Source: Candidatus Marinacidobacterales bacterium (lineage in GTDB: Bacteria; Acidobacteriota; Vicinamibacteria; Marinacidobacterales; SMYC01). Taken from it: DNA of 64,000 bases. Numbering within the stretch: the first letter of the stretch is position 1; each line of letters starts with the position of its first letter. This document shows, piece after piece, positions 1,359 through 33,363 of the stretch. The notes under the pieces are model-generated. The model had not been told where the DNA came from, made no database searches, and saw nothing but the letters and a program-made list of their open reading frames with translations. A program made the translations under genes and the position numbers. The DNA lies in contig CBDCYI010000005.1 of the NCBI GenBank assembly GCA_965224085.1, forward strand, positions 2,080,001 through 2,144,000, written 5' to 3'.

Positions 1359-4300
1359 TTATCTAGGCTGCTTGAGCCCGAGGGCTTCTCCCAACCCACC
1401 TAGCTCCGGATCGTCCGGCCACCGCTCGAGCCCCTCCTCGAGAAAGCGAAGTGCTTCGCTTCGCTCGCCAACTTGAACGTGAGCACGGATGAGTCTCACG
1501 CAGATTGCGGGCGAAGGAGCAAGGTCGAACGCCTTTCGAAGGGGTTGTAGGGCTTGTCGGCTTTGCCCGGTTTGATTGAGAATGGTGCTCAAGTTGAGGT
1601 GGTCTCTCGGAGACTCGGGTTGGTGGGAGATCGCCGCCTCATAGGAGGAGATGGCCTTCGACAAATTACCCAGCACCGCCATGACGTAGCCGAGATTGCT
1701 GTGTGCATCGGCAAATTGTGGATTCAACGCGATGGCTTTCTCGAACGCCTCTGCCGCTTCTTTCCATCTTTGCTGGTTGAGCATCACCGTGCCGAGGTTG
1801 TGATGGACCTTGGCAGAATCCGGACTCCGTTCCGTGGCCCTTTGGTAGAACGTCTCTGCGTGACTCCAGTAGCCCCGCTCTGCGAACTCATTGCCCAGTG
1901 AAAAAAAATTGCGGAAGAACTCGATTCCCAAATTGATGCCATCGAACGGCAGGCCGACCCGCTCCCGCTCTTCGGCGGTCCGAGGGATTCGCTCCGAGTC
2001 GGCGGCAACGTCATCAGCCCCGACGGCGCCCCGGTAAACCTTGACAATCCTTCCTTGCTCGTCGATGAGGAAGCTCGTTGGAATGGCCAGGTCGGAAATT
2101 CGGTCATAGAGAGTGGGAGTCAGGACATTGTAGACTCCAACCATCTCTTCACTAGCCAGGAGCAACGGGAAGTCGAGCCGGAGCTCCTCCTTGAACGCCC
2201 GCACCGGTTCCTCAGCCGGCGGCTCGTCCACCGAGACGGCTAGAAGAGTGACGCCCGACGCTTCCAGATCCGATCTTTTATTCTTGAAGTCCAAAAGCTC
2301 ACCGCGGCAAGGGGCGCACCAGCTCGCCCAGAAGTTCAGCAGCACCTTTTGTCCTTTGAGACTCGCTAACCGGTGGCTCTTGCCGTCCAAGTCGCTCAAG
2401 GTGAAATCAGGAGCGGGCAGAGGATCCAGAAGCCACGTACCCCTGGGTGGGCTGGGCATGTCTTTATTGACCTTCCGAACCGGAGTCGCGTGGGGCGGCT
2501 GGAAAGGCTCGATCTCGAGGTCCTCCTCGCCTTCGACCACACGGATGAGGTGATTCGCCGGGGTCGACCCGAGTGTCTGTACCACTCCACTCGGCCAGTG
2601 GATGACGACTCTTTCTATCTCCCCCAAACCCTCGAGACCGAAATGAAGCCTGCGGCTACTTTGAGATAGGTAACCGCTTGCCGCACGTACCGTTTTCTGA
2701 CGAACGCCCCGACTGGTGTGGACCTCGACGCGGGCACCTATCGCGTCAGGATTACTCGAGCGACCTTCCAAAAGAAAACGGACCGCAGCCCGTCCGTTGG
2801 CCAGGTCGTTGCGCAGGAGCCGGAGCTGAGGTGCGTTTCGGCTCTTGAGTGCGATGTCAATGTCCCCATCCAGGTCATAGTCGAAACCGACGAAGGCCCG
2901 TCCGTCCTCGGGAAAGTCGAGCCCGCTGATACCCGAGGCATCGATGAAGGTGCCGTCGCCATTGTTGAGGTAGAAGCAGTTGCGCTCGTCGCCGCTCCAG
3001 CTTCCGTCGCCCCGAATGAGGCGATTGATAGCGTTCCAGCCTTGCTCATAAAGCTCCACCGCTTTGTTTTCAGTGGGCGAGCGCGACACGACTTGCCGCC
3101 AGAAGAAGCTTCAAAGATCTTTCGTCGAGGTATTAGTAATGAAGCCATTGACGGAGTAGAGGTCTTCGTCCCCGTCGTTGTCGCAATCGAGAAAGTCACT
3201 ACTCCAGGCCCATCGCCCAAACTCGACCCCGGCCTGCTTGCCGACATCTTCGAACCCGCCATCTCCCCGGTTTCGAAACAAGCTACTTCCCTTGGCGTGA
3301 CGCACGTAGCTGGCGCGTGCGTTGTCAGTTTGATAACCGGGCTGTCCGGTCAGGCGTAGACCGGCAGAAGACCACATGTTGCCCACATAGAGATCGTCTT
3401 TGCCATCCAGGTCGTAATCCACCCAGGCGACGCTCATACCCGCGCCGATGTCCGATACACCCGCGTCTCGGGTAACCTCGAGGAATCTGCCTTTCCCGAA
3501 GTTCTGATACAGATTGTTCCTGCCGAAGTCGTTCGCCACGTAGAGGTCGAGCCATCCATCATTGTTGAAGTCGCCCCAAGACGAGGAGAAGCTGAAGCGG
3601 TCGTTTCCCCGGTCAAAGCCCGCACTCTTGGTGACGTCTTCGAAGGTTCCATCGCCACGATTCCGAAAAAGTATGTTTGGAGGCCCATTGGTGGCATCGT
3701 GATAGGGGTAAGGCAGCGCCAGGGTAGTATCTTCTCCGGGAGCATCGAAGTATCGGTAGCAGGTGACGTAGAGGTCCAAATCGCCGTCGTTGTCGAAGTC
3801 GGCCAATGACGCCGAGCTCAAAGTGGCGTCGGCGCCGTCTTTCCTTTCAAACGAAGCTCGAGAGAGCTCGAATCTCCCGTGCCCGTCGTTTAGGAGAAGC
3901 ACGACGGTCCAGTTATGGATGACGACGAACAGGTCTTGATCACCGTCATTGTCGGCGTCGCCGAAGAGTCCCAAGGAGGTGCGCTCGAGAAGATCGACTC
4001 GGGATTCCCGGCTGATATCCTCGAACGTCCCGTCACCCCGGTTCCGATAGAGCCGGTTCGGGAGTCCCTGCGGCTGAGCCACGTAAAGGTCCTCGAGTCC
4101 GTCGCCATCCACGTCTCCAACCGCAAGTCCGCTATGTCCGTACACATCGATGCCACCGGCGGCATCTACCCCGGTGCGGAAGTGATCGACCCCCATCCTC
4201 ATCTGCTCCCAGTAGGAGGGTGCGTCGGCCCAGGCGACAGTGCTCACGTCGGTAAAGAAGGGCTTGGCGGTTCGCCCTCCGGTGGAGGGCTCGACCTCGA

Positions 4301-4946
4301 GGCGCTTCATTTTCCAACCGTCATCCGAAAAGACCCAGTCCACTCGCCACCAACCTCGACGGGCAATGAAGTCGTTCGCCGCTCCTCGTCCCGAGACGTC
4401 ATACAAGATCCGAGTCCGCGCATGCGACGGCTCGGCAGCGGCATCCACGTGGATACTGACGATCTTGAACTCGAGTAAAGAAAAGGAATGAAACTCCTCG
4501 ATCCAAGCCAGAAGAGCGGAGGGCGCCTGGGCCGCCATTGCGGAGAGCTTTTCAGGATAGCGATACCGGAAGAGCTCAACACTCGGAGGTGCGGCCACCG
4601 CCTGGCTTGAGACCGGCTCTAGAGAAGGTGCCTGAAACCCCCTATGGACAAGCGAGGCGATCTCTCCCGGTCGACGTCCTTCTATTGCCTCTTCCAACGC
4701 ACGGAGCCTTTCTTCGATCGCCTCGGCAACGACCTCGGTCCTAAAACGATCCTGTGCAGGATCGACGGCAACGAACAGGGACTCGACCGCCGAGCGTTTG
4801 GAGGGGTAGCCTCGCACCGGGAAGACCTGTTTGCTCTGCTCAGATTGCTCGGAGGCTTCTCCTGCTCGTGAGGCGGGAGTAAAGGATATGAACAAGCAGG
4901 CCAGCACCACGAGACGAGAAAACGACTCACTCATGATGGAATACAC
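1359..4946 (-). CDS. FG-GAP-repeat / ASPIC-UnbV / thioredoxin-like redoxin / TPR multidomain protein, probably read through an in-frame UGA (candidate selenocysteine) at 3111-3113
   Basis: ORFs 3111-4946 and 1359-3089 are in frame, joined by TGA plus 7 sense codons (STKDL-U-SFFWRQVVSRSP). N-terminal signal-like stretch, DxDxDGxxD FG-GAP repeats, ASPIC/UnbV (SNPDAIGARV...LHFGL), redoxin with WCAPC, C-terminal TPRs. Start may be the ATG at 4934. Confidence 0.75.
3083..3099 (-). promoter_or_regulatory. Candidate bacterial SECIS hairpin for the UGA at 3111-3113
   Basis: UGA, 11 nt, then GCGGCA-AGUCG-UGUCGC (6-bp stem with one G-U pair, 5-nt AGU loop); same geometry as the fdnG SECIS in this window. 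Confidence 0.6.
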
Positions 4947-5614: not shown

Positions 5615-7825
5615 CTAAGGAAGTAGAGTGAAACGCGTCCCGCCCTCGACGATCGCGATGCGTCGACCCAAAGGCAGATCGTGGAACGTCTGGGTGAGCC
5701 CGGAGGTCGGCCACCAGACTTCGAGACGATCGATCTTTTTCGCTCTTCCCAGGCCGACCATCTGCTCGAGTGGATTGGCTCCAAACGTTCCCCCGCTGAT
5801 CACGTGCTTGTAGATGGTGCGGCGGCGGTCCCCTTCGTCGATATCGAAGCGCAGCCGGGCTCCCTGGGCGGAGCGATTCGACTGCCTCCCGATGAGCTTC
5901 ACGCCGATCCATTGGTTGCCGAAGCCCGGGTTCTCGTAGACAACGTCATGGAAGCCGTCGCCCGGGAGCGCACCGCCCATCTGCTCGAAAACGTCCTGAT
6001 CGCCGTCATGGTCGAGATCCGCAAACGCGATCGCGTGCCCCTTCTGCAAATGAGCGAAACCGCCGGCGGTCGTGACATCCGCAAAAGACTCACCGGATCG
6101 GTTGCGGAACATGACGTTGGGCATGACGTCCTGGTAGTCCGGATAGCCCGTACCCAGGTAGAAGTCCAGGTATCCATCGTTGTCCAGGTCGCCGAAGTTG
6201 GAGCCCATGGGGGCGTTGGGACTCTTCAGATTCTGCTCGAGGGCAACGTCTTCGAAACCGCCCTGTCCGTCGCCGCGATACAGCCGCGCCATCTCGATGT
6301 CGAGGGGCTGCCCGAGGTAAGCGGCGGCCAGGTGTCCGATTCTGGCGATGTAGGCGGATACGAACAAGTCAAGAGCCCCGTCGTTGTCGAAGTCCCAGAA
6401 CCAGGCGGGGAAACTGTCCACCGGGCCATCCACGCCGAGTTCCGTCGCCACGTCCGTGAAGGTTCCGTCGCCGTTGTTGTGGTAGAGACGGTTCGCGCCT
6501 TTCAGATTCGAGACATACAGGTCGGTAAAGGTGTCGGCGTCGTAGTCGCCCCAGATGACCGCCTTGGCAAACCGCAAATTCTCCACATCCGCTTCTCGCG
6601 CCACGTCGGTGAACGTCCCGTCCCCGTCGTTGCGAAGGAGCTGACAAGGGGCTGTCACGCCGTCGTACGTCTCGTTTCCGATATACAGATCCAGGTCGCC
6701 ATCGTTGTCGTAGTCGGCCCACGAGGCGGTCTGGGTAGGAAAGTGCTCCTCTCCCAGCCCGGAGTCGAACGTGACGTCGGTAAAGGTTCCGTCGCCGTTG
6801 TTGCGCAGGAGGGAGTTAGGGTGGAGCCCACTCCGGGACAGCCAGGCTCCGCGCAGTACCAGAACGTCGACGTCGCCGTCGTTATCGTAGTCGGCCTGGA
6901 GCATGTTGAGTCCGCCGGTAATTCCGGTCAGCCCCGCCGGTTCCGTCCGGTCCTCGAACGACCAGCTCCCCCGGTTTCGGAACAAGCGGATCTGACCCGC
7001 CGGATCCCACGTGGAGACGAGCAGGTCCAGCCGGCCATCGGTGTCGAAATCGTCCGCAATGGCGCTCCCGGAAAGACTGAAGGTGTCCAGCCCGACGCGC
7101 CGAGCAATATTGGCGAACCGGGGAAACGGCTCGTCGGAGTCGAACGCTTCCGGCGGAATCAAGTAGGCCTCGGGCACGTCCCCGGGATGAGCACCCAGCG
7201 TCATGAAAGCGATATTCAGAAGCCAGCGCGCGCTCATGTGAATGAGGGTGTCTTCGCTGGAGTTTTGGAGCACCTCGGTGAAGCACTCCACCGCTCTGAG
7301 CGATCCCTCTCGCTCGATATGAATGGCGTTTCCTCGAATCGGAAGGATGCAGCTTTCGGGCGCATTACGGAGACAACAGTTCTGGGTCTCGCCCAATCGC
7401 GTGTAGGCGACACCCATGCGGTAGAACAGTCGGTTTCTCCAGCCTGCGGCCAGTTCGGTCTCCACTTCGCGAAGCAGGCGGTACGCACCCAAAAAGCTCT
7501 CGATTGCCTCTTGCTCGCGGCCCAGGTCGAGCTCGGCCTCCCCTAGTCGGTAGTAGACCTCCCACTTGATGATTGCGGGTATCGTCTCCGGCAGCGCCGC
7601 CAGCTCGGCTCGTAGCGCGCGCGCTTTCTTGTCACCGATGTAGGGATTGTCTTCCGGCGTGCGGGCAACGATATCGGACAGCAGGGCGAGCATCTTCTGG
7701 TGCCCGGGATCGTGGGGCTGGACTCCTGGGGAGCTTGCCGCGAGCAGGAATGGGCTTGCGATCAGTGCGAGCGTCGCAAGCGATCGGAGGATGATGGTGC
7801 GCGATGTATTCATCGCAGGTATCAC
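5615..7825 (-). CDS. CRTAC1-family protein (FG-GAP repeats plus C-terminal ASPIC/UnbV domain) with N-terminal TPR-like and NCC-x7-C region
   Basis: Signal peptide, ETQNCCLRNAPESC motif, many DYDNDGDxD repeats, QSNRSAQGARL...GTFGANPL ASPIC/UnbV region; start may be ATG 7813. Confidence 0.85.
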   Translation of the reverse strand: MIPAMNTSRTIILRSLATLALIASPFLLAASSPGVQPHDPGHQKMLALLSDIVARTPEDNPYIGDKKARALRAELAALPETIPAIIKWEVYYRLGEAELDLGREQEAIESFLGAYRLLREVETELAAGWRNRLFYRMGVAYTRLGETQNCCLRNAPESCILPIRGNAIHIEREGSLRAVECFTEVLQNSSEDTLIHMSARWLLNIAFMTLGAHPGDVPEAYLIPPEAFDSDEPFPRFANIARRVGLDTFSLSGSAIADDFDTDGRLDLLVSTWDPAGQIRLFRNRGSWSFEDRTEPAGLTGITGGLNMLQADYDNDGDVDVLVLRGAWLSRSGLHPNSLLRNNGDGTFTDVTFDSGLGEEHFPTQTASWADYDNDGDLDLYIGNETYDGVTAPCQLLRNDGDGTFTDVAREADVENLRFAKAVIWGDYDADTFTDLYVSNLKGANRLYHNNGDGTFTDVATELGVDGPVDSFPAWFWDFDNDGALDLFVSAYIARIGHLAAAYLGQPLDIEMARLYRGDGQGGFEDVALEQNLKSPNAPMGSNFGDLDNDGYLDFYLGTGYPDYQDVMPNVMFRNRSGESFADVTTAGGFAHLQKGHAIAFADLDHDGDQDVFEQMGGALPGDGFHDVVYENPGFGNQWIGVKLIGRQSNRSAQGARLRFDIDEGDRRRTIYKHVISGGTFGANPLEQMVGLGRAKKIDRLEVWWPTSGLTQTFHDLPLGRRIAIVEGGTRFTLLP

Positions 7826-16168: not shown

Positions 16169-16956
16169 GGCGCTTTATCCTCATAGGTCTTCGGACCGAA
16201 GCGAACGTAGTGCAGAAAGGCCCCAAGCACGCCGCCGACCAACAACGCGTTGCCGAGCCACTTGAGCGGGCCTTTCCACAGGCGCACCGTCAAGGGCACG
16301 ACCGGATCGTTCGGGAGGCCATAGTCTTCGGGGTTCAAGGCATCTCCGAGCACGTAGATGACGTTGGTCCCGCCCACACCCGCGGGATTATAGACACCCG
16401 CTTTCTCGCTTCCACGCGCCCGCAGCTCCTCGGAGCGATCGTTCGCGATCTGAACCAGGTCACTGCGCTCGCCGAAGGTCAGACAATTCGTGGGGCAAGC
16501 TTTGATGCAGGCAGGCTCGAGCCCGACGGCCGTCCGATCGGAGCACAAGTTGCACTTGTACGCCTTGCGCGTCACCGGATTCAGCTTGGGTACGTCGAAA
16601 GGGCAGCCGGTGATGCAGTAGCCGCAGCCGATGCACTTCTCCTCGTCGATGTCGACCGTGCCGTTTTCGTGGCGGAATATAGCTCCCGGCGCGGGACAAG
16701 CGGTGAGACAACCGGCATCGACGCAATGCATGCATTGGAACTTCGCCATGAGCCAGGACAGGTTTCCGTCCTCGCGCTCGATCTCATTGAACTGGATCAA
16801 GTTCCAGAAATCGTGGCGCGTCGTGGGAAAGGTCTGATAAGAGCCGTCGAAGCTAGAGGCGGTGAGGCCTTGCTCGTTCCACTCTTGGCAGGCTGCTTCG
16901 CACGCCTTGCAACCGATGCACGTCGTGGTGTCGATCAACTTGGCGACAGTGACCAT
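16165..16956 (-). CDS. fdnH: Formate dehydrogenase beta (iron-sulfur) subunit
   Basis: AKLIDTTTCIGCKACEAAC, CMHCVDAGCLTACP, CIGCGYCITGCPF, KCNLCSDR; C-terminal membrane anchor. Confidence 0.93.
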   Translation of the reverse strand: MVTVAKLIDTTTCIGCKACEAACQEWNEQGLTASSFDGSYQTFPTTRHDFWNLIQFNEIEREDGNLSWLMAKFQCMHCVDAGCLTACPAPGAIFRHENGTVDIDEEKCIGCGYCITGCPFDVPKLNPVTRKAYKCNLCSDRTAVGLEPACIKACPTNCLTFGERSDLVQIANDRSEELRARGSEKAGVYNPAGVGGTNVIYVLGDALNPEDYGLPNDPVVPLTVRLWKGPLKWLGNALLVGGVLGAFLHYVRFGPKTYEDKAP

Positions 16957-19900
16957 CAGACCTTCGCTTTCTCAAGGTTGACGAGAAACCCTTTGTATTC
17001 CGGCGTTCCCGAGTTGGGGTCCAATACGGACGGCGTCAGGTTATTGACGAGCGGACCTTTCGTCCGGCCGAGATAGCCCCAATGGATCGGAAGCCCCACT
17101 TGGTAAATCGTGCGCCCTCCTGCTTGGAGTGGACGGATGCGCTTCGTCACCATCGCCGGACCCTCGGCCGTACCGCGTGCCGACGTCACCCGAACCCGGT
17201 CTCCATTCCGTATGCCTTTTTCGTTCGCGAGCGGTTCGGGGATCTCGACAAAGAAGCTCGACTGCAAGAGCGAGTTGGTCTCGACGTGTTTCGTCCAATA
17301 ATGAAAATGCTCGGTCAAGCGATAAGTGAGCGCGACATAAGGGTAGTCCTCGGCGGTTCCGAGCGGATCGAGATCGCCTTCGAAGATCGTCGCCATCGGA
17401 TTGGTCCCCACCGCTTTATGCATGGCGTTATCGACAGGAGACTCCACCGGCTCGTAATGCTCGGGGAAAGGGCCTTCGGCGAAATCCGGAGCAAAGAGCT
17501 TTGCGACCCCCTCGGGAAGCATGATGAACGAGCCCAGTGCATCGGGCGGCGCGTCGGCTTTGAAATCGGGAACGTCGCCGACATAGCGATTCCCTTGCCA
17601 GCGAATGGCCGCGCGCGTTTCATCCCAAGGCATCCCGTTCGCATCCGCGGAGGCGCGGTTGTAGAGAACGCGCCGATTGGCGGGCCAGCTCCAGGACCAG
17701 TTCGCATGAAGGCCGAGCCCGGTCGGATCGTCTTGGCCGCGCCGTGCCATTTGGTTGCCGTCCTCGGTAAAAGAACCCGCATAGAGCCAGTTGCCGCAAC
17801 GGGTCGATCCGTCATCCCGAAGCGCACCGAAGCCCGGAACTTGCCGTCCGCTGGCGAGCTCTTGTCCGTTGACTTCCTTCGCAACTTCCTCGAGATCGGG
17901 AGAGACGGCATTGCCGTAGTCCCACGCGATGTCCATCAGCGGCTCGGGCGAAGCGCCCCCTTCTTGCTCGTAAAGCTCCCGTATCTTCAGGAAGAGGCGG
18001 GCTACGATCTCTTGGTCCGGCTTCGCGTCGCCCGGCGGCGGGAGCGCCGCGCGCTTCCACTGAAGCCACCGGGAGGAGTTGACGAAAGCGCCGTCCTTCT
18101 CGGCGAAACAGGCTGCCGGGAGCAAGAACACCTCGGTGTCGACCGCGGAAGCGTCCGGCGCCTCGCCGTAATATTCCTCTGCCAGCTTCTTCGCGTTCCA
18201 AAACGCCGCGGTCTCGGTCTCGAAGTTCTCGACGACGATCATCCACTTTAGTTTGCGGAGCGCTGCGAGCATCTTCGGCGAGTTGGGACCGTTGGCTACC
18301 GGATTCATCCCGAACGAGATCAACCCCTCGACCTCGCCCTTGTGCATGCGGTCGAACAAGAACCCCCAGCCGAAGTTGTCGTTCTCGCCGACTTTCGGAA
18401 GATGATCGTAGGCGAAATCGTTCGCGCGCGTCGCCTTGTCGCCGTAATAGGCTTTGAGGAGGCTCACGATAAATTTGGACGTGTTGCTCCAATAGTTGAG
18501 CGCTTTGGGGCGAAGCGCCCGCGGGGAATTGGCGTCGACATAGTCTTCGAGGGTCTGCCAGTCGGCGCGAGGCACTTTGACGTAGCCTGGGAGCATGTTC
18601 CACGCACCCATGTCAGTCGCGCCTTGGATGTTCGAATGGCCGCGCTGCGCGTTCACACCTCCGCCGGGCATCCCGATATTGCCGAGAAGAAGCTGCAGCA
18701 TCGCCGCCGCGTGGATGAGCTGCACCGAGTGGCTGTGCTGCGTCCAGCCGAGCGCATAGAGTATCGTCCCCGCGCGACCCGCGCGACCGGTGGAGCAAAC
18801 GACCTCCGCAACACGGTTGAACTCCTCCACCGTGCAACCGCAAATATCGGCGACGCGTTCCGCGGTGTAGCGGGCATAATGCTGCGTCAAGAGCTGAAAA
18901 ACAGAGCGCGGGTGGCCGAGAGAGGCGTCGACACGCGCATAGCCTGTGCTGTCGAGCTCATATTGCCAGCTCGTCTTGTCGTATTTCTTTGACGCACCAT
19001 CCCATCCCGTAAAGTAGCCGTTGTCGAAACCGAAGCCTTCCTTCACGAGAAAAGGTGCGTTCGTGTGCTCCTTGACATAGTCGCTGTGATAGAGGTCGTT
19101 ACTGAGCGCGTAGTGGATGAGCCCAGCGAGAAAAGCGATATCGCTGCCCGAGCGCAGCGGCACGTAGACATCAGAGACGGCCGCGGTGCGGGTGAACCGC
19201 GGATCGACACACACGATCTTCGCCTTCCGGCGCTTCTTCGCCTCCATGGCGAAGCGGAAACCCACCGGATGGTTCTCCGCGGGGTTTCCGCCCATGACGA
19301 GGACGACGTCGGTGTTGGCGACGTCGGTCCAGCCATTCGTCATCGCGCCCCGTCCGAAGGTGGCGGCCAAACTGGCCACCGTGGGGCCGTGTCAGAGCCG
19401 GGCCTGGTTCTCGTAGGTGACGATACCCAGGCCGAAGCGGAATTTTCCGAGAAGGTAATTGATCTCGTTCGTGTCGGTGCAGCCGCCGATGAGTGCCGTG
19501 TTCTCGAGGCGATTCACGGTGCGCCCGTCGCTGTCTTCGGCCTCGAAGCCCGCGTCACGGGTGTCTTTGATCCTGCGCGCTATCCGCTCGATGGCGTCGT
19601 CCCACGAAATGGGCGTCCACTCCGTGGCGCCGGGGGCGCGATAAAGGGTCTTCGTCAAACGGCGGTCATTGACGACGTATTGTTTTAGCGAGATGCCTTT
19701 GGAACAGAGCGTACCGCGGTTGATCGGGCTATCCGTGTCGCCTTCGATGTGGACGACGGTCGGCTTCACGTTCTTCGCGCGGTCGCCGAGCGTATGGATG
19801 ACAACACCGCATCCGACGGCGCAGTAAGGACAGACGCTCTGGGTCTGGGTGGTGCGGGCGATCTTCAGCTCTTTCGCGCGACGCGCCGCCTCGCTCAAGT

Positions 19901-19970
19901 CGAAGCCGAAAGCGGTGGTCGCGAGAGCGGTCGCGCTCGCTTGAAAGAATTGTCGCCGGGATAGATCCAC
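16956..19970 (-). CDS. fdnG: Formate dehydrogenase-N/O alpha subunit, selenocysteine-containing (UGA at 19392-19394), Tat-exported, ~1004 aa
   Basis: SRRQFF Tat motif, CPYCAVGC, in-frame NQARL-U-HGPTVASLAATFGRGAMTN joining ORFs 19392-19970 and 16956-19379, RGHSNIQG. Confidence 0.95.
19362..19380 (-). promoter_or_regulatory. SECIS element of fdnG
   Basis: UGA, 11 nt, then GGUGGCC-AGUUU-GGCCGCC hairpin at the position expected for an fdnG SECIS. Confidence 0.85.
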
Positions 19971-20101
19971 GGGTACCCTCCCGATGGATTGGGTATCACG
20001 GTCGGTCGGTGGCTGTCAAAGCGAGCGGAAGGGTCCTAGCAAGAAGATCGCTCCCGCCCACGATCGGATCAAACTGAGATTGGCACACTCTCTGAAGAGC
20101 C

Positions 20102-26273: not shown

Positions 26274-27957
26274 GTTCCTGTCCAGAAACACCATAACTTG
26301 TGGTGTACGAGAGGCCTATCGAAGATGTGGGTATTATACGTTTTCAGTCGGCACCTCGTAGGCTCGGAAGCGAATGAAAATCTTGGACGAAACGAGAGGC
26401 GAATCGTCAGCAATCCATGGCTATAAACGCAGTAAGAGTAATCATTATTATCGTAATAGGTGCCTTGCCATTACCAACAGGTTGCAGGTGATGATGGAAC
26501 TCCATACGTAGGATTTGAAAGAAGGCAATGAGCGCCATGTGCATCGGTCGAGACCAAAGACTCGTTTCAAGAACGAAATGACGCCTTCGATTCCGCAGCG
26601 AAATCGCCGTAGGCGTTGATAGACCCAGGAACTCTTGACCATATCGGTCACCGCGAAGTGAGCCTTGGTAAAGGCAACATCTTCAACTCCCTTGCCTTTG
26701 ATGGCTTCCAAGTTTGCCTTTGAAGAAAACGCGCCATCGTAGGCAACCTGGCGCGGGGCCCGTTCGTAGAGTTCGACTTGACGGTCGATCATGGTTTCCG
26801 CGAGAGTTGAATCGGACGGATTCCCATCCAAGATCACGCAATCCAAAATCATCGAGGACGAGCCACCAGTCAAACACACCTTGTGACCGTAGAGAGTCTC
26901 GCGCCGGTCTTTGCGAATAATGTCGGTGTGTTCTTCGAAGATCGAAACGACCTTTTCCTCCGCAGGCACACGCTCTTCATCAATCACTCTACGCCGAGTT
27001 TGGTTGATGACTTTTTCGGTGAGGACGAGAAAGTGCTTAAAATCCGCGGCGATCTTCTCCGCACTCGCTCGCTTCACCGGCTCGGTCAAGCCGGACTCGT
27101 CCAACTGGTCTGCAACGCGTTGAGCGGAGCGATAGGTTTCTTCCGACACCTTCAGTAGATCTCGATAGACGCGACGCCTTTGTTCCTTATCCTTCGCGTT
27201 TAGAACTCCCAGTCGACGTCTCTTCGCTCGACGCGTTCGATTGCCGAAGACCACTACTGTACCCAGCAGTTCGCGAGTTCGGCACATGAGGCGAGTGAGA
27301 ACTCGGACGCAGTCATAAAGAAGCTCGGAGTCCGTAGGAGAATGAATATTCGACTCCACTACCGTGCAGTCCACTCGTACTTTTCTTCCTTTTTCGATCG
27401 CGGTCTTCTCGGCAACACTCACCAACTCTCGGTTGATTTTCTCCAGCGTTTCGAACTTCACGGCTTTGATGTTTGCTGCTAGGGTCGACTTCGACGGGCT
27501 CGGCTCTATGATGCCGAGCTGGCAAAACGTCCGATAGCTTCGAGAGTCTGCCAAGTGAAACGCCAGCTCCCGATAGGTGAACTGATTCAGCTGCTTGACC
27601 AACAACGCCCGGAGAACCTGCTCCGCGCTCATTCCCCCACGACCAACATCGCTCCCTGCCGATGGGGTGACCGACCTCAGGTCTTGCAGTACCAGCTCAT
27701 TCAGCTTAGGATGGGCATCGAGCAGCGATGATATCGTTTCGAGCTCGCGTGCGTGCTCCAGCTCCAGCCAGGGCTCGCGAAGGCTTGGTTGTGGGTTGAT
27801 CGTTTTTCGCATTTAGGGCTGGTCTCCTTTGGAGTTAAGTCGTTTAGAATCTGCGTTTTTGTCGACTCGATACTAAACGACACTCCCTCAGAAGGCTAGC
27901 CCTAAATTTGCGATTACCCCTTTTTTCTCAACCTCTTACACCTGTCAGGACGGGTAC
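26274..27957 (-). mobile_element. IS element A copy 1 (ISNCY/ISDol1-like DDE), 1684 bp
   Basis: Imperfect TIRs GTTCCTGTCC / GGACGGGTAC, flanked by TAGCTA on both sides, one transposase ORF. Confidence 0.9.
26448..27812 (-). CDS. DDE transposase (ISNCY/IS5-like), 454 aa
   Basis: VRVDCTVVESNIHSPTDS, KVVSIFEEHTDII, AYDGAF, RCGIEGVISFLKR. Confidence 0.92.
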   Translation of the reverse strand: MRKTINPQPSLREPWLELEHARELETISSLLDAHPKLNELVLQDLRSVTPSAGSDVGRGGMSAEQVLRALLVKQLNQFTYRELAFHLADSRSYRTFCQLGIIEPSPSKSTLAANIKAVKFETLEKINRELVSVAEKTAIEKGRKVRVDCTVVESNIHSPTDSELLYDCVRVLTRLMCRTRELLGTVVVFGNRTRRAKRRRLGVLNAKDKEQRRRVYRDLLKVSEETYRSAQRVADQLDESGLTEPVKRASAEKIAADFKHFLVLTEKVINQTRRRVIDEERVPAEEKVVSIFEEHTDIIRKDRRETLYGHKVCLTGGSSSMILDCVILDGNPSDSTLAETMIDRQVELYERAPRQVAYDGAFSSKANLEAIKGKGVEDVAFTKAHFAVTDMVKSSWVYQRLRRFRCGIEGVISFLKRVFGLDRCTWRSLPSFKSYVWSSIITCNLLVMARHLLR

Positions 27958-27963
27958 TAGCTA

Positions 27964-29647
27964 GTTCCTGTCCAGAAACACCATAACTTGTGGTGTACGA
28001 GAGGCCTATCGAAGATGTGGGTATTATACGTTTTCAGTCGGCACCTCGTAGGCTCGGAAGCGAATGAAAATCTTGGACGAAACGAGAGGCGAATCGTCAG
28101 CAATCCATGGCTATAAACGCAGTAAGAGTAATCATTATTATCGTAATAGGTGCCTTGCCATTACCAACAGGTTGCAGGTGATGATGGAACTCCATACGTA
28201 GGATTTGAAAGAAGGCAATGAGCGCCATGTGCATCGGTCGAGACCAAAGACTCGTTTCAAGAACGAAATGACGCCTTCGATTCCGCAGCGAAATCGCCGT
28301 AGGCGTTGATAGACCCAGGAACTCTTGACCATATCGGTCACCGCGAAGTGAGCCTTGGTAAAGGCAACATCTTCAACTCCCTTGCCTTTGATGGCTTCCA
28401 AGTTTGCCTTTGAAGAAAACGCGCCATCGTAGGCAACCTGGCGCGGGGCCCGTTCGTAGAGTTCGACTTGACGGTCGATCATGGTTTCCGCGAGAGTTGA
28501 ATCGGACGGATTCCCATCCAAGATCACGCAATCCAAAATCATCGAGGACGAGCCACCAGTCAAACACACCTTGTGACCGTAGAGAGTCTCGCGCCGGTCT
28601 TTGCGAATAATGTCGGTGTGTTCTTCGAAGATCGAAACGACCTTTTCCTCCGCAGGCACACGCTCTTCATCAATCACTCTACGCCGAGTTTGGTTGATGA
28701 CTTTTTCGGTGAGGACGAGAAAGTGCTTAAAATCCGCGGCGATCTTCTCCGCACTCGCTCGCTTCACCGGCTCGGTCAAGCCGGACTCGTCCAACTGGTC
28801 TGCAACGCGTTGAGCGGAGCGATAGGTTTCTTCCGACACCTTCAGTAGATCTCGATAGACGCGACGCCTTTGTTCCTTATCCTTCGCGTTTAGAACTCCC
28901 AGTCGACGTCTCTTCGCTCGACGCGTTCGATTGCCGAAGACCACTACTGTACCCAGCAGTTCGCGAGTTCGGCACATGAGGCGAGTGAGAACTCGGACGC
29001 AGTCATAAAGAAGCTCGGAGTCCGTAGGAGAATGAATATTCGACTCCACTACCGTGCAGTCCACTCGTACTTTTCTTCCTTTTTCGATCGCGGTCTTCTC
29101 GGCAACACTCACCAACTCTCGGTTGATTTTCTCCAGCGTTTCGAACTTCACGGCTTTGATGTTTGCTGCTAGGGTCGACTTCGACGGGCTCGGCTCTATG
29201 ATGCCGAGCTGGCAAAACGTCCGATAGCTTCGAGAGTCTGCCAAGTGAAACGCCAGCTCCCGATAGGTGAACTGATTCAGCTGCTTGACCAACAACGCCC
29301 GGAGAACCTGCTCCGCGCTCATTCCCCCACGACCAACATCGCTCCCTGCCGATGGGGTGACCGACCTCAGGTCTTGCAGTACCAGCTCATTGAGCTTAGG
29401 ATGGGCATCGAGCAGCGATGATATCGTTTCGAGCTCGCGTGCGTGCTCCAGCTCCAGCCAGGGCTCGCGAAGGCTTGGTTGTGGGTTGATCGTTTTTCGC
29501 ATTTAGGGCTGGTCTCCTTTGGAGTTAAGTCGTTTAGAATCTGCGTTTTTGTCGACTCGATACTAAACGACACTCCCTCAGAAGGCTAGCCCTAAATTTG
29601 CGATTACCCCTTTTTTCTCAACCTCTTACACCTGTCAGGACGGGTAC
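27964..29647 (-). mobile_element. IS element A copy 2, tandem direct repeat of copy 1
   Basis: Same ends and length; the only difference from copy 1 that I saw is one silent substitution (27702 vs 29392). Confidence 0.9.
28138..29502 (-). CDS. DDE transposase (ISNCY/IS5-like), 454 aa
   Basis: Protein identical to 26448-27812. Confidence 0.92.
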   Translation of the reverse strand: MRKTINPQPSLREPWLELEHARELETISSLLDAHPKLNELVLQDLRSVTPSAGSDVGRGGMSAEQVLRALLVKQLNQFTYRELAFHLADSRSYRTFCQLGIIEPSPSKSTLAANIKAVKFETLEKINRELVSVAEKTAIEKGRKVRVDCTVVESNIHSPTDSELLYDCVRVLTRLMCRTRELLGTVVVFGNRTRRAKRRRLGVLNAKDKEQRRRVYRDLLKVSEETYRSAQRVADQLDESGLTEPVKRASAEKIAADFKHFLVLTEKVINQTRRRVIDEERVPAEEKVVSIFEEHTDIIRKDRRETLYGHKVCLTGGSSSMILDCVILDGNPSDSTLAETMIDRQVELYERAPRQVAYDGAFSSKANLEAIKGKGVEDVAFTKAHFAVTDMVKSSWVYQRLRRFRCGIEGVISFLKRVFGLDRCTWRSLPSFKSYVWSSIITCNLLVMARHLLR

Positions 29648-31679: not shown

Positions 31680-33363
31680 GTTCCTGTCCAGAAACACCAT
31701 AACTTGTGGTGTACGAGAGGCCTATCGAAGATGTGGGTATTATACGTTTTCAGTCGGCACCTCGTAGGCTCGGAAGCGAATGAAAATCTTGGACGAAACG
31801 AGAGGCGAATCGTCAGCAATCCATGGCTATAAACGCAGTAAGAGCAATCATTATTATCGTAATAGGTGCCTTGCCATTACCAACAGGTTGCAGGTGATGA
31901 TGGAACTCCATACGTAGGATTTGAAAGAAGGCAATGAGCGCCATGTGCATCGGTCGAGACCAAAGACTCGTTTCAAGAACGAAATGACGCCTTCGATTCC
32001 GCAGCGAAATCGCCGTAGGCGTTGATAGACCCAGGAACTCTTGACCATATCGGTCACCGCGAAGTGAGCCTTGGTAAAGGCAACATCTTCAACTCCCTTG
32101 CCTTTGATGGCTTCCAAGTTTGCCTTTGAAGAAAACGCGCCATCGTAGGCAACCTGGCGCGGGGCCCGTTCGTAGAGTTCGACTTGACGGTCGATCATGG
32201 TTTCCGCGAGAGTTGAATCGGACGGATTCCCATCCAAGATCACGCAATCCAAAATCATCGAGGACGAGCCACCAGTCAAACACACCTTGTGACCGTAGAG
32301 AGTCTCGCGCCGGTCTTTGCGAATAATGTCGGTGTGTTCTTCGAAGATCGAAACGACCTTTTCCTCCGCAGGCACACGCTCTTCATCAATCACTCTACGC
32401 CGAGTTTGGTTGATGACTTTTTCGGTGAGGACGAGAAAGTGCTTAAAATCCGCGGCGATCTTCTCCGCACTCGCTCGCTTCACCGGCTCGGTCAAGCCGG
32501 ACTCGTCCAACTGGTCTGCAACGCGTTGAGCGGAGCGATAGGTTTCTTCCGACACCTTCAGTAGATCTCGATAGACGCGACGCCTTTGTTCCTTATCCTT
32601 CGCGTTTAGAACTCCCAGTCGACGTCTCTTCGCTCGACGCGTTCGATTGCCGAAGACCACTACTGTACCCAGCAGTTCGCGAGTTCGGCACATGAGGCGA
32701 GTGAGAACTCGGACGCAGTCATAAAGAAGCTCGGAGTCCGTAGGAGAATGAATATTCGACTCCACTACCGTGCAGTCCACTCGTACTTTTCTTCCTTTTT
32801 CGATCGCGGTCTTCTCGGCAACACTCACCAACTCTCGGTTGATTTTCTCCAGCGTTTCGAACTTCACGGCTTTGATGTTTGCTGCTAGGGTCGACTTCGA
32901 CGGGCTCGGCTCTATGATGCCGAGCTGGCAAAACGTCCGATAGCTTCGAGAGTCTGCCAAGTGAAACGCCAGCTCCCGATAGGTGAACTGATTCAGCTGC
33001 TTGACCAACAACGCCCGGAGAACCTGCTCCGCGCTCATTCCCCCACGACCAACATCGCTCCCTGCCGATGGGGTGACCGACCTCAGGTCTTGCAGTACCA
33101 GCTCATTGAGCTTAGGATGGGCATCGAGCACCGACGAGATCGCTTCGAGCTCGCGCGCGTGCTCCACCTCCAGCCAGGGCTCGCATAGGCTTGGTTGTGG
33201 AATGATTGTTTTTCGCATTTAGGGCTGGTCTCCTTTGGAGTTAAGTCGTTTAGACTCTTGTTTTTGACGACTTCGATTCTAAGCGACAACCCCTCAGAAG
33301 ACTAGCCCTAAATTTGCGATTACTCCCTTTTTCTCAACCTCTTACGTCCGCCAGGACGGGTAC
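31680..33363 (-). mobile_element. IS element A copy 3 (mosaic; diverged ~33130-33350)
   Basis: Same ends and 1684-bp length; near-identical to copies 1-2 except a substitution cluster in the leader and transposase N-terminus. Confidence 0.9.
31854..33218 (-). CDS. DDE transposase (ISNCY/IS5-like), 454 aa, variant N-terminus
   Basis: Differs from the other copies only within the first ~30 aa (5 substitutions). Confidence 0.92.
   Translation of the reverse strand: MRKTIIPQPSLCEPWLEVEHARELEAISSVLDAHPKLNELVLQDLRSVTPSAGSDVGRGGMSAEQVLRALLVKQLNQFTYRELAFHLADSRSYRTFCQLGIIEPSPSKSTLAANIKAVKFETLEKINRELVSVAEKTAIEKGRKVRVDCTVVESNIHSPTDSELLYDCVRVLTRLMCRTRELLGTVVVFGNRTRRAKRRRLGVLNAKDKEQRRRVYRDLLKVSEETYRSAQRVADQLDESGLTEPVKRASAEKIAADFKHFLVLTEKVINQTRRRVIDEERVPAEEKVVSIFEEHTDIIRKDRRETLYGHKVCLTGGSSSMILDCVILDGNPSDSTLAETMIDRQVELYERAPRQVAYDGAFSSKANLEAIKGKGVEDVAFTKAHFAVTDMVKSSWVYQRLRRFRCGIEGVISFLKRVFGLDRCTWRSLPSFKSYVWSSIITCNLLVMARHLLR

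Follow-up and report, generated by a model that had tools for sequence, protein, structure and literature searches.

A single gene in the genome of Candidatus Marinacidobacterales bacterium (Acidobacteriota) raises the question of whether an in-frame UGA ends translation or is read through as an amino acid. The gene, which is predicted to encode a CRTAC1-like β-propeller protein, lies on the minus strand at positions 1359-4946 of the 64,000-nucleotide stretch analysed here (contig CBDCYI010000005.1, positions 2,080,001 to 2,144,000; hereafter the window), where a frame of 1195 codons plus a stop is unbroken but for a TGA at 3111-3113. A program that lists open reading frames (ORFs) returns two pieces, one of 611 residues (3111-4946, minus strand) and one of 576 residues (1359-3089, minus strand), the GTG that it takes as the second start lying seven codons (SFFWRQV) beyond the TGA. 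A first-pass annotation of the window had remarked that these two ORFs are in frame and separated by nothing but the TGA and SFFWRQV, and this is borne out; read through, they give a product of 1195 residues in which codon 612 is the TGA (...NTSTKDL-U-SFFWRQVVSRSP...), the likelier start being an ATG at codon 5. That annotation also proposed that residue 612 is selenocysteine (Sec, U). The conserved TGA, a covarying hairpin 3' of it and the Sec machinery of the genome support the proposal, and we assign a probability of roughly 0.88 to the reading in which UGA612 is decoded as Sec within one protein of about 1190 residues.

The TGA is conserved among close and distant relatives alike. When 41 related genomes were searched with stops read through and 38 homologues were aligned, TGA was found in the same alignment column in all 22 of the homologues (from 14 of the 41 genomes) that carry an insert of ~14 residues; the insert is wholly missing from the other 16, which are ordinary CRTAC1-like proteins. 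Orthologues with 98, 96, 82, 74 and 73% identity have exactly one TGA apiece, as do members of paralogue clades at ~30-40% identity. The 22 insert-bearing homologues form three clades, with a mutual identity of ~30-37%, and the motifs KDL-U-SFFWRQ, KDT-U-SLFWRH and GD[TS]-U-S[IT]FWRA occur among them. The genome itself encodes a second member (C11:1313418-1315472, minus strand; 922 residues) with the motif KDT-U-SLFWRHVVA, a WCVPC redoxin and no TPR repeats, which has its own TGA and hairpin.

The same codon recurs far outside this group. One genome per species of bacteria and archaea was scanned for the motif D-x-(TGN)-S-x-F-W-R-x-V, all counts being of matches listed, and at least 114 matches were returned (TGA 109, TGC 2, TGT 2, TGG 1). 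At least 106 of the TGA matches, on 105 contigs, stand in the context of the family (..NDGWEDL..NGF.T....DL-U-SFFWR..), and all five non-TGA matches, together with three TGA matches, fall outside it. The 105 listed loci are distributed over at least seven phyla, i.e. Planctomycetota (49), Acidobacteriota (30), Verrucomicrobiota (18), Bacteroidota (2) and one each in Pseudomonadota, Latescibacterota and Myxococcota, with three in unplaced records. A second scan, of metagenome contigs, used D-x-(WRH)-x-FFWRQVV and admitted U, C, N, S, K, R or Y at the site without favour to any codon class; at least 121 matches were listed, of which 77 encode Asn and 39 have TGA, with four TGC (all out of family context) and one AGC, and a search through 401 genomes from the phylum added five further Asn-forms. 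Altogether more than 150 distinct loci have the same TGA. In public databases, the family is systematically annotated as truncated or as split into two genes; thus, 33 database proteins around one paralogue clade (among P0129-P0209; 540-592 residues) stop precisely one residue before the TGA, and are named 'FG-GAP-like repeat-containing', 'VCBS repeat-containing' or 'hypothetical'.

The second line of evidence is an RNA hairpin. The first-pass annotation had pointed to the sequence GCGGCA-AGUCG-UGUCGC, 11 nucleotides past the UGA and resembling the selenocysteine insertion sequence (SECIS) of bacterial selenoprotein genes; it is present at 3083-3099 (minus strand), as a 17-nucleotide hairpin with a 6-bp stem and a 5-nucleotide loop holding G+19 and U+20, after a spacer (3100-3110, minus strand) made up of the codons S-F-F plus part of W. 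In a 2026 review (PMC13188914), the bacterial SECIS consensus is given as a stem of 4-16 bp, a loop of 3-9 nucleotides with G in one of its first two positions, 16-37 nucleotides from UGA to loop, and a minimum free energy of at most -7.5 kcal/mol. The window hairpin agrees with that description in stem (6 bp), loop (5 nucleotides, G at loop position 2) and distance (17 nucleotides to the loop), and is borderline in energy, since the value of -8.1 kcal/mol in context lies within the limit and that of -6.5 kcal/mol for the hairpin alone does not.

Comparison with relatives is more informative than the energy of any one hairpin. A set of 150 distinct 39-mers from TGA-containing members (U-forms) aligns ungapped, so the spacing between UGA and hairpin is fixed. 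The six stem positions are paired in 89.8% of cells, and the covariation score is 0.248, compared with 0.114 +/- 0.008 for shuffled alignments (attained in 0/500) and 0.029-0.106 when the partners are slid. At stem pair 18/28 five pair types are found (GU 51, AU 39, CG 21, UA 12, GC 11), and at another pair two (AU 124, GC 13). Pair 18/28 couples the synonymous third base of an Arg codon to the first base of a codon that varies among Ser, Pro, Thr and Ala; purely synonymous changes (CGU..GCA versus CGC..GCG) maintain pairing in the WRAVAR clade. The loop is AGUCG in the window gene and GGUCG in most relatives, G+19 and U+20 being invariant in the U-forms. At the fixed register the mean stem is 6.05 bp in 39 U-forms, compared with 2.7 bp in 82 Asn-forms from the matches listed; the hairpin is thus not a by-product of the peptide, because the Asn-forms encode the same FFWRQVV without it. 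The check on covariation that the first-pass annotation had proposed therefore came out in its favour and, judged from these substitution patterns, the RNA hairpin is under selection.

The same annotation had expected a conserved TGA in some homologues and Cys at the same position in others. The first expectation holds, in that three deep clades and several phyla share the TGA at one column; the second does not, since Asn, followed by Ser and Ala, dominates elsewhere. Of 3086 full-length relatives, the best 120 have at the site Asn (97), Ser (12), Ala (7), Glu (2), and Cys and Asp (one each), while 82 site-spanning proteins near the paralogue clade have Asn (68), Ser (6), Arg (2) or, once each, Val, Glu, Cys, Thr, Ala or Gln. 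For a simple nonsense mutation it had foreseen homologues with neither a recurring TGA nor a conserved hairpin; what is found is a TGA that recurs and a hairpin that is kept, and for these two reasons the rarity of Cys falls outside that description.

The identity of the residue at position 612 goes hand in hand with the state of a second site, far downstream. The protein has a ResA/TlpA-like redoxin domain (residues 844-976; 2019-2417, minus strand; Pfam AhpC-TSA, E 4.8e-25, and Redoxin, E 5.5e-20), with a WCAPC motif at residues 876-880 (2307-2321, minus strand) in which Cys877 and Cys880 are proposed partners of Sec612. WCxxC is present in 22 of 22 U-forms from the related genomes. By contrast, among the 120 non-TGA relatives the motif is CxxC in 5, has only the second Cys in 52, only the first in one and neither in 53, the remaining 9 having no redoxin match. 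Among the metagenome matches listed, a CxxC lies 180-330 residues downstream of the site in 32/34 U-forms, 0/70 Asn-forms and 0/1 Ser-forms. When 83 U-forms and 54 Asn-forms were aligned together, the first redoxin Cys was found in 81/83 and 0/54, respectively, and the second in 79/83 and 32/54; every other Cys is present in at most 64% of the U-forms. On these alignments, Sec and the nucleophilic redoxin Cys are found together.

The order of events was considered on a FastTree phylogeny of 168 propeller segments, with the Sec site masked, 20 Asn-forms randomly dropped and four short proteins omitted. The tree requires four changes between U and non-U on its 168 tips and, with midpoint rooting, every non-U group is nested within U clades. 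Within the large Asn clade, CxxC is retained by the basal E, S, N and C forms and lost in 38 of 40 crown tips; a Cys-form (P0128) whose CAPC motif is intact clusters with two U-forms. With the root placed at the midpoint, the tree fits a history in which Sec is ancestral and has been lost a few times, with the partner site decaying later.

The organism is equipped to insert Sec. The first-pass annotation had argued as much from an fdnG gene of the UGA type in the window, and that gene is real: the fdnG/fdhA-type formate dehydrogenase (~16950-20020, minus strand) has an in-frame TGA at 19392-19394 (minus strand; ..ARL-U-HGPTVASL..), followed by an 11-nucleotide spacer and a 19-nucleotide hairpin, GGUGGCC-AGUUU-GGCCGCC, of -13.4 kcal/mol. 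Across the 6.87-Mb genome, the full machinery that the annotation had asked after was found, with tRNA-Sec (selC; 74 bits versus an Rfam gathering score of 47), selA (550.1 bits versus a cut-off of 267.9), selB (364.9 versus 242) and selD (279.6 versus 125). The selD match (contig C5:1545162-1546073, minus strand) lies inside an open frame of 774 residues, compared with a model of 311 positions, and may be part of a fusion. ARAGORN found zero tRNAs in the window, and Rfam gave no matches over the whole window at gathering thresholds; as the latter blank includes fdnG, it says nothing about bacterial SECIS elements. Beyond this genome, selA is present in 40 of the 41 related genomes, and above cut-off in 5/5 of the distant holders of U-forms that were checked. 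In one related genome (G018, 74% complete; contig C15:960792-961985) the selA match is split into three pieces that lie side by side, pointing to frameshifts or to errors of assembly.

It may be asked whether the UGA, even if read by means of the hairpin, specifies something other than Sec, i.e. Cys inserted by a tRNA-Sec-like tRNA, or Trp by near-cognate read-through. Acidobacteria are noted for having unusual tRNAs and for recoding Sec codons to Cys, and the Cys-form P0128 indicates that Cys at the site is viable in nature. Against this, a single tRNA-Sec-like gene reaches the gathering score, the other matches scoring 34-43 bits, and selA and selD are intact, so that Sec-tRNA can be made. 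With respect to Trp, it occurs at the column in 0/120 and 0/82 of the listed relatives, and the lone TGG match is out of context. Decoding as a residue other than Sec thus seems improbable, and decoding as Sec is preferred.

The predicted structure bears on a second possibility, that the UGA simply terminates translation. An AlphaFold2 model of residues 250-985, built from 124 input sequences that are mostly Asn-forms, has a pLDDT of 87.4 and a pTM of 0.79. It comprises an FG-GAP β-propeller (~residues 270-730; 2757-4139, minus strand; FG-GAP_3 matched in six stretches, Pfam E 8.1e-44), which includes the Sec-bearing insert loop and helix, followed by a UnbV_ASPIC domain (residues 735-800; 2547-2744, minus strand; Pfam E 1.6e-19), i.e. 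the arrangement that defines the CRTAC1/ASPIC-UnbV family. Foldseek matches this part of the model to murine CRTAC1 (9etn_A, E 1.9e-25, target-normalised TM 0.70) over 581 columns, in agreement with the earlier suggestion that the propeller carries on past the stop, and CRTAC1 is the sole match by sequence in the Protein Data Bank. Sec is model residue 363, the first of a helix (363-373) that follows a strand (346-351) and a loop. As in the CxxC motif of thioredoxin folds, the first redoxin Cys (Cys628 in model numbering) is just before a helix (629-640). The redoxin domain is matched to ResA (1st9_B, E 2.1e-12, TM 0.86 normalised to the target), as well as to TlpA, StoA and Etrx2 (E ~1e-12 to 1e-10).

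Termination at the UGA would give a truncated propeller of 611 residues, perhaps with a second product made from an internal start. Gene callers annotate the locus in this way, the 33 database proteins that end at the residue before the TGA are in line with it, and there is the GTG seven codons past the UGA. However, the break would fall within a propeller that aligns as a single fold to CRTAC1, the frame and the protein similarity run across the TGA in all clades, and the CxxC domain further downstream varies together with the TGA. Clade 3 does not retain the GTG, having WRAVAR (GCG GUC GCA) at that place, and the selection on the hairpin is for pairing, not for a start site. We regard termination as a shade less probable than decoding of the UGA as Cys or Trp, and read-through as Sec as the better account of the locus.

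Public sequencing reads were consulted with respect to the TGA itself, which the first-pass annotation had allowed might be a read error. Contigs assembled from runs of two DNA studies, either of which may be the source sample, are identical to the window over 2800-3400 and speak against such an error. Two contigs from RNA libraries (230 and 237 nucleotides, each from a different run of the same metatranscriptome study) span the TGA; they show 2 and 1 differences from the window, with no difference listed at the TGA. The RNA-run contigs of X16 and X17 cover the stretch in part, and their gaps are not interpreted. Many other contigs match only ~3075-3119, the segment of UGA and hairpin, and are otherwise unlike the window; their source is other members of the family. 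The contig depth in runs X3 and X4 rises ~6- to 37-fold over ~3075-3119 and over 2947-2967, the latter encoding a DxDxDG FG-GAP motif; numerous further family members in these samples match the window at those two segments and nowhere else. A pseudogene, or a sequencing error at the TGA, with the hairpin a by-product of the peptide, is scarcely credible: the single-sequence fold, which is no better than that of shuffles, is in its favour, but the same TGA is found in more than 150 distinct loci, the contigs of two DNA studies are identical to the window, the compensatory changes include synonymous sites, and the Asn-forms have FFWRQVV with a mean stem of 2.7 rather than 6.05 bp.

A number of observations sit less comfortably with decoding of UGA612 as Sec. 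The fold of positions +1 to +40 has z = 0.16, with 121 of 200 shuffles folding at least equally well, so the case that the hairpin is above chance comes from the comparison with relatives, not from single-sequence folding. The helix residues S, F, W, R and V are invariant in the Asn-forms as well, which implies that part of the nucleotide conservation is at the protein level, and that the helix serves in structure or binding too. The Sec/Cys pattern that is usual for selenoproteins is weak, with Cys at the site in 2 of the 202 listed non-TGA relatives that span it. Genomes that hold Asn-forms have selA in 5/5 cases, so the Asn-form is not explained by loss of the Sec trait; with selA also in 40/41 relatives, the correlation of the TGA form with the trait gives no discrimination. 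The pairing of Sec with the redoxin motif is imperfect in both directions, with CxxC kept in 5/120 non-U forms and absent from 2/34 U-forms. A sign test of Sec against CxxC was not significant; the two are phylogenetically clumped, and with just 3-4 independent contrasts the test cannot reach significance. Finally, RNA libraries can contain DNA, so the bridging contigs do not prove transcription.

Taking Sec612 as the preferred reading, decoding would be by the ordinary bacterial route, involving tRNA-Sec, SelA, SelD and SelB bound to the hairpin 11 nucleotides past the UGA. The protein is probably secreted, judging by its N terminus as read by eye, where a hydrophobic stretch, MSESFSRLVVLACLFISFTPASRAG (4860-4934, minus strand), is probably a signal peptide, and by its ResA/TlpA-like fold. 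Sec612 would head an α-helix (U-S-x-F-W-R) on the insert in the CRTAC1-like FG-GAP propeller and, as the likely redox-active residue of an extracytoplasmic oxidoreductase, its selenolate at the helix N-terminus may react either with an oxidised substrate or with an oxidant. The oxidised selenium would then be attacked by Cys877 of the redoxin domain in the same chain to give a selenenylsulfide, which Cys880 could resolve. ResA and TlpA are re-reduced from the membrane, and the redoxin domain of the window protein may be re-reduced likewise. The co-occurrence of Sec and redoxin Cys, together with the order of their losses on the tree, inclines us towards such a cis-redoxin relay for the regeneration of Sec, with less assurance than attaches to the Sec assignment itself. 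In relatives that have lost both Sec (mostly to Asn) and Cys877, this redox chemistry has probably ended.

As a candidate SelB/SECIS-dependent selenoprotein, the window protein resembles known examples, including the FdnG/FdhA encoded in the same window, in its in-frame UGA, in a hairpin at 11 nucleotides and in the G-U of the loop. It differs from FdnG in family, fold and location, and its Sec would not be a molybdenum ligand; its hairpin is minimal at 17 nucleotides and weaker than that of fdnG (-6.5 versus -13.4 kcal/mol). It also differs from known selenoproteins of this type in that the Sec of its family is outside a thioredoxin-type UxxC motif and in that Cys-forms are rare. With the CRTAC1/ASPIC-UnbV family it shares FG-GAP_3 plus UnbV_ASPIC and the best fold match (9etn); compared with ordinary members, it adds the Sec-bearing insert of loop and helices, the fused redoxin, and C-terminal TPR repeats (residues 1045-1182; 1401-1814, minus strand; Pfam). 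To our knowledge, no enzymatic or redox role has been described for CRTAC1.

The redoxin domain is like those of ResA, TlpA, StoA and Etrx in fold and in the WCxxC motif. Such proteins reduce specific partner proteins outside the cytoplasm, Etrx proteins reportedly feeding a surface methionine sulfoxide reductase. By contrast with these proteins, the domain in the window protein is fused in cis to its presumed client, and its NCBIfam scores are far below the cut-offs for ResA (86.9 versus 170) and TlpA (67.5 versus 230). Two known types of selenoprotein have a similar domain, i.e. the WAxxUGC ResA-like NF041054, which also has TPR repeats, and UGC-containing TlpA. In these the Sec is inside the redoxin motif, whereas in the window protein the motif is all-Cys (WCAPC) and the Sec is 265 residues upstream. 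Membership of NF041054 was considered and rejected, the score being 75.5 bits versus a cut-off of 300 and the motif WCAPC.

The family does not appear in the catalogues of selenoproteins to which we compared it, as the first-pass annotation had suspected. Table 1 of the 2026 review (PMC13188914), in its available portion, gives 119 prokaryotic selenoprotein families or subfamilies, none of them with FG-GAP, UnbV_ASPIC, CRTAC1 or VCBS domains. FG-GAP, ASPIC, VCBS, propeller, CRTAC and Planctomycet are likewise unmentioned in the available text of that review and of the deep-Sep and BSepDB papers (PMC12013277, PMC13326102), the supplementary tables of which could list the family. Nor do the available parts of the GOS paper (PMC2398784) mention FG-GAP, ASPIC, repeat, TPR, 'without Cys' or 'no Cys', although its supplements could differ. 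A full-text search of the literature gave nothing relevant joining selenoprotein or selenocysteine to FG-GAP, ASPIC, CRTAC1, VCBS or UnbV, and NCBIfam has no model for the propeller part. By comparison of sequences, then, this is very probably a widespread family of bacterial selenoproteins that is new to current catalogues and is misannotated as two broken genes. Selenoprotein catalogues have been built mainly from UGA/Cys pairs in thioredoxin-like folds; the family would escape such screens because its Cys-forms are rare and its Sec is in a β-propeller.

The surroundings of the gene may be described briefly. The immediate upstream neighbour (5615-7825, minus strand) is an ordinary CRTAC1-like gene of 736 residues, with FG-GAP_3 plus UnbV_ASPIC and without the Sec insert or redoxin; CRTAC1-like proteins are much expanded, related genomes having 27-54 matches each to the query. 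No clue to function came from the neighbouring genes, which encode this protein, a TPR protein, M24 and M20 peptidases and a DUF885 protein. A scan of the window for U..C motifs also brought up an identical stretch in three copies (26683-26685, 28373-28375 and 32089-32091, minus strand), which reads ..VFFKGKLGSHQRQGS*RCCLYQGSLRG.. in one frame and is a repeated element.

If these assignments are correct, their implications extend beyond a single gene. The family is common, with at least 106 in-context sites in species genomes and 39 of the 121 metagenome matches listed, and if it were recognised, many gene models would be put right and the selenoproteomes known from three environmentally important phyla would grow. 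The hairpin, with 17 nucleotides at a distance of 11 and five pair types at one stem position, offers a compact set of natural data on what SelB needs. The family also provides a tractable case of a Sec that is seemingly irreplaceable by Cys, and hints that its fold, which human CRTAC1 shares, may have a redox function. More tentatively, and at somewhat less than even odds in our view, the window protein may be the first known member of a large class of extracytoplasmic selenoenzymes, so far unrecognised, in Planctomycetota, Verrucomicrobiota and Acidobacteriota, in which a CRTAC1-like propeller with a helix-capping Sec and a built-in TlpA-like reductase carries out chemistry beyond the reach of cysteine. 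Such a class would account for the near-absence of Cys-forms and for the decay of the redoxin after Sec is lost, and with it a catalytic role would be assigned to the CRTAC1 fold for the first time.

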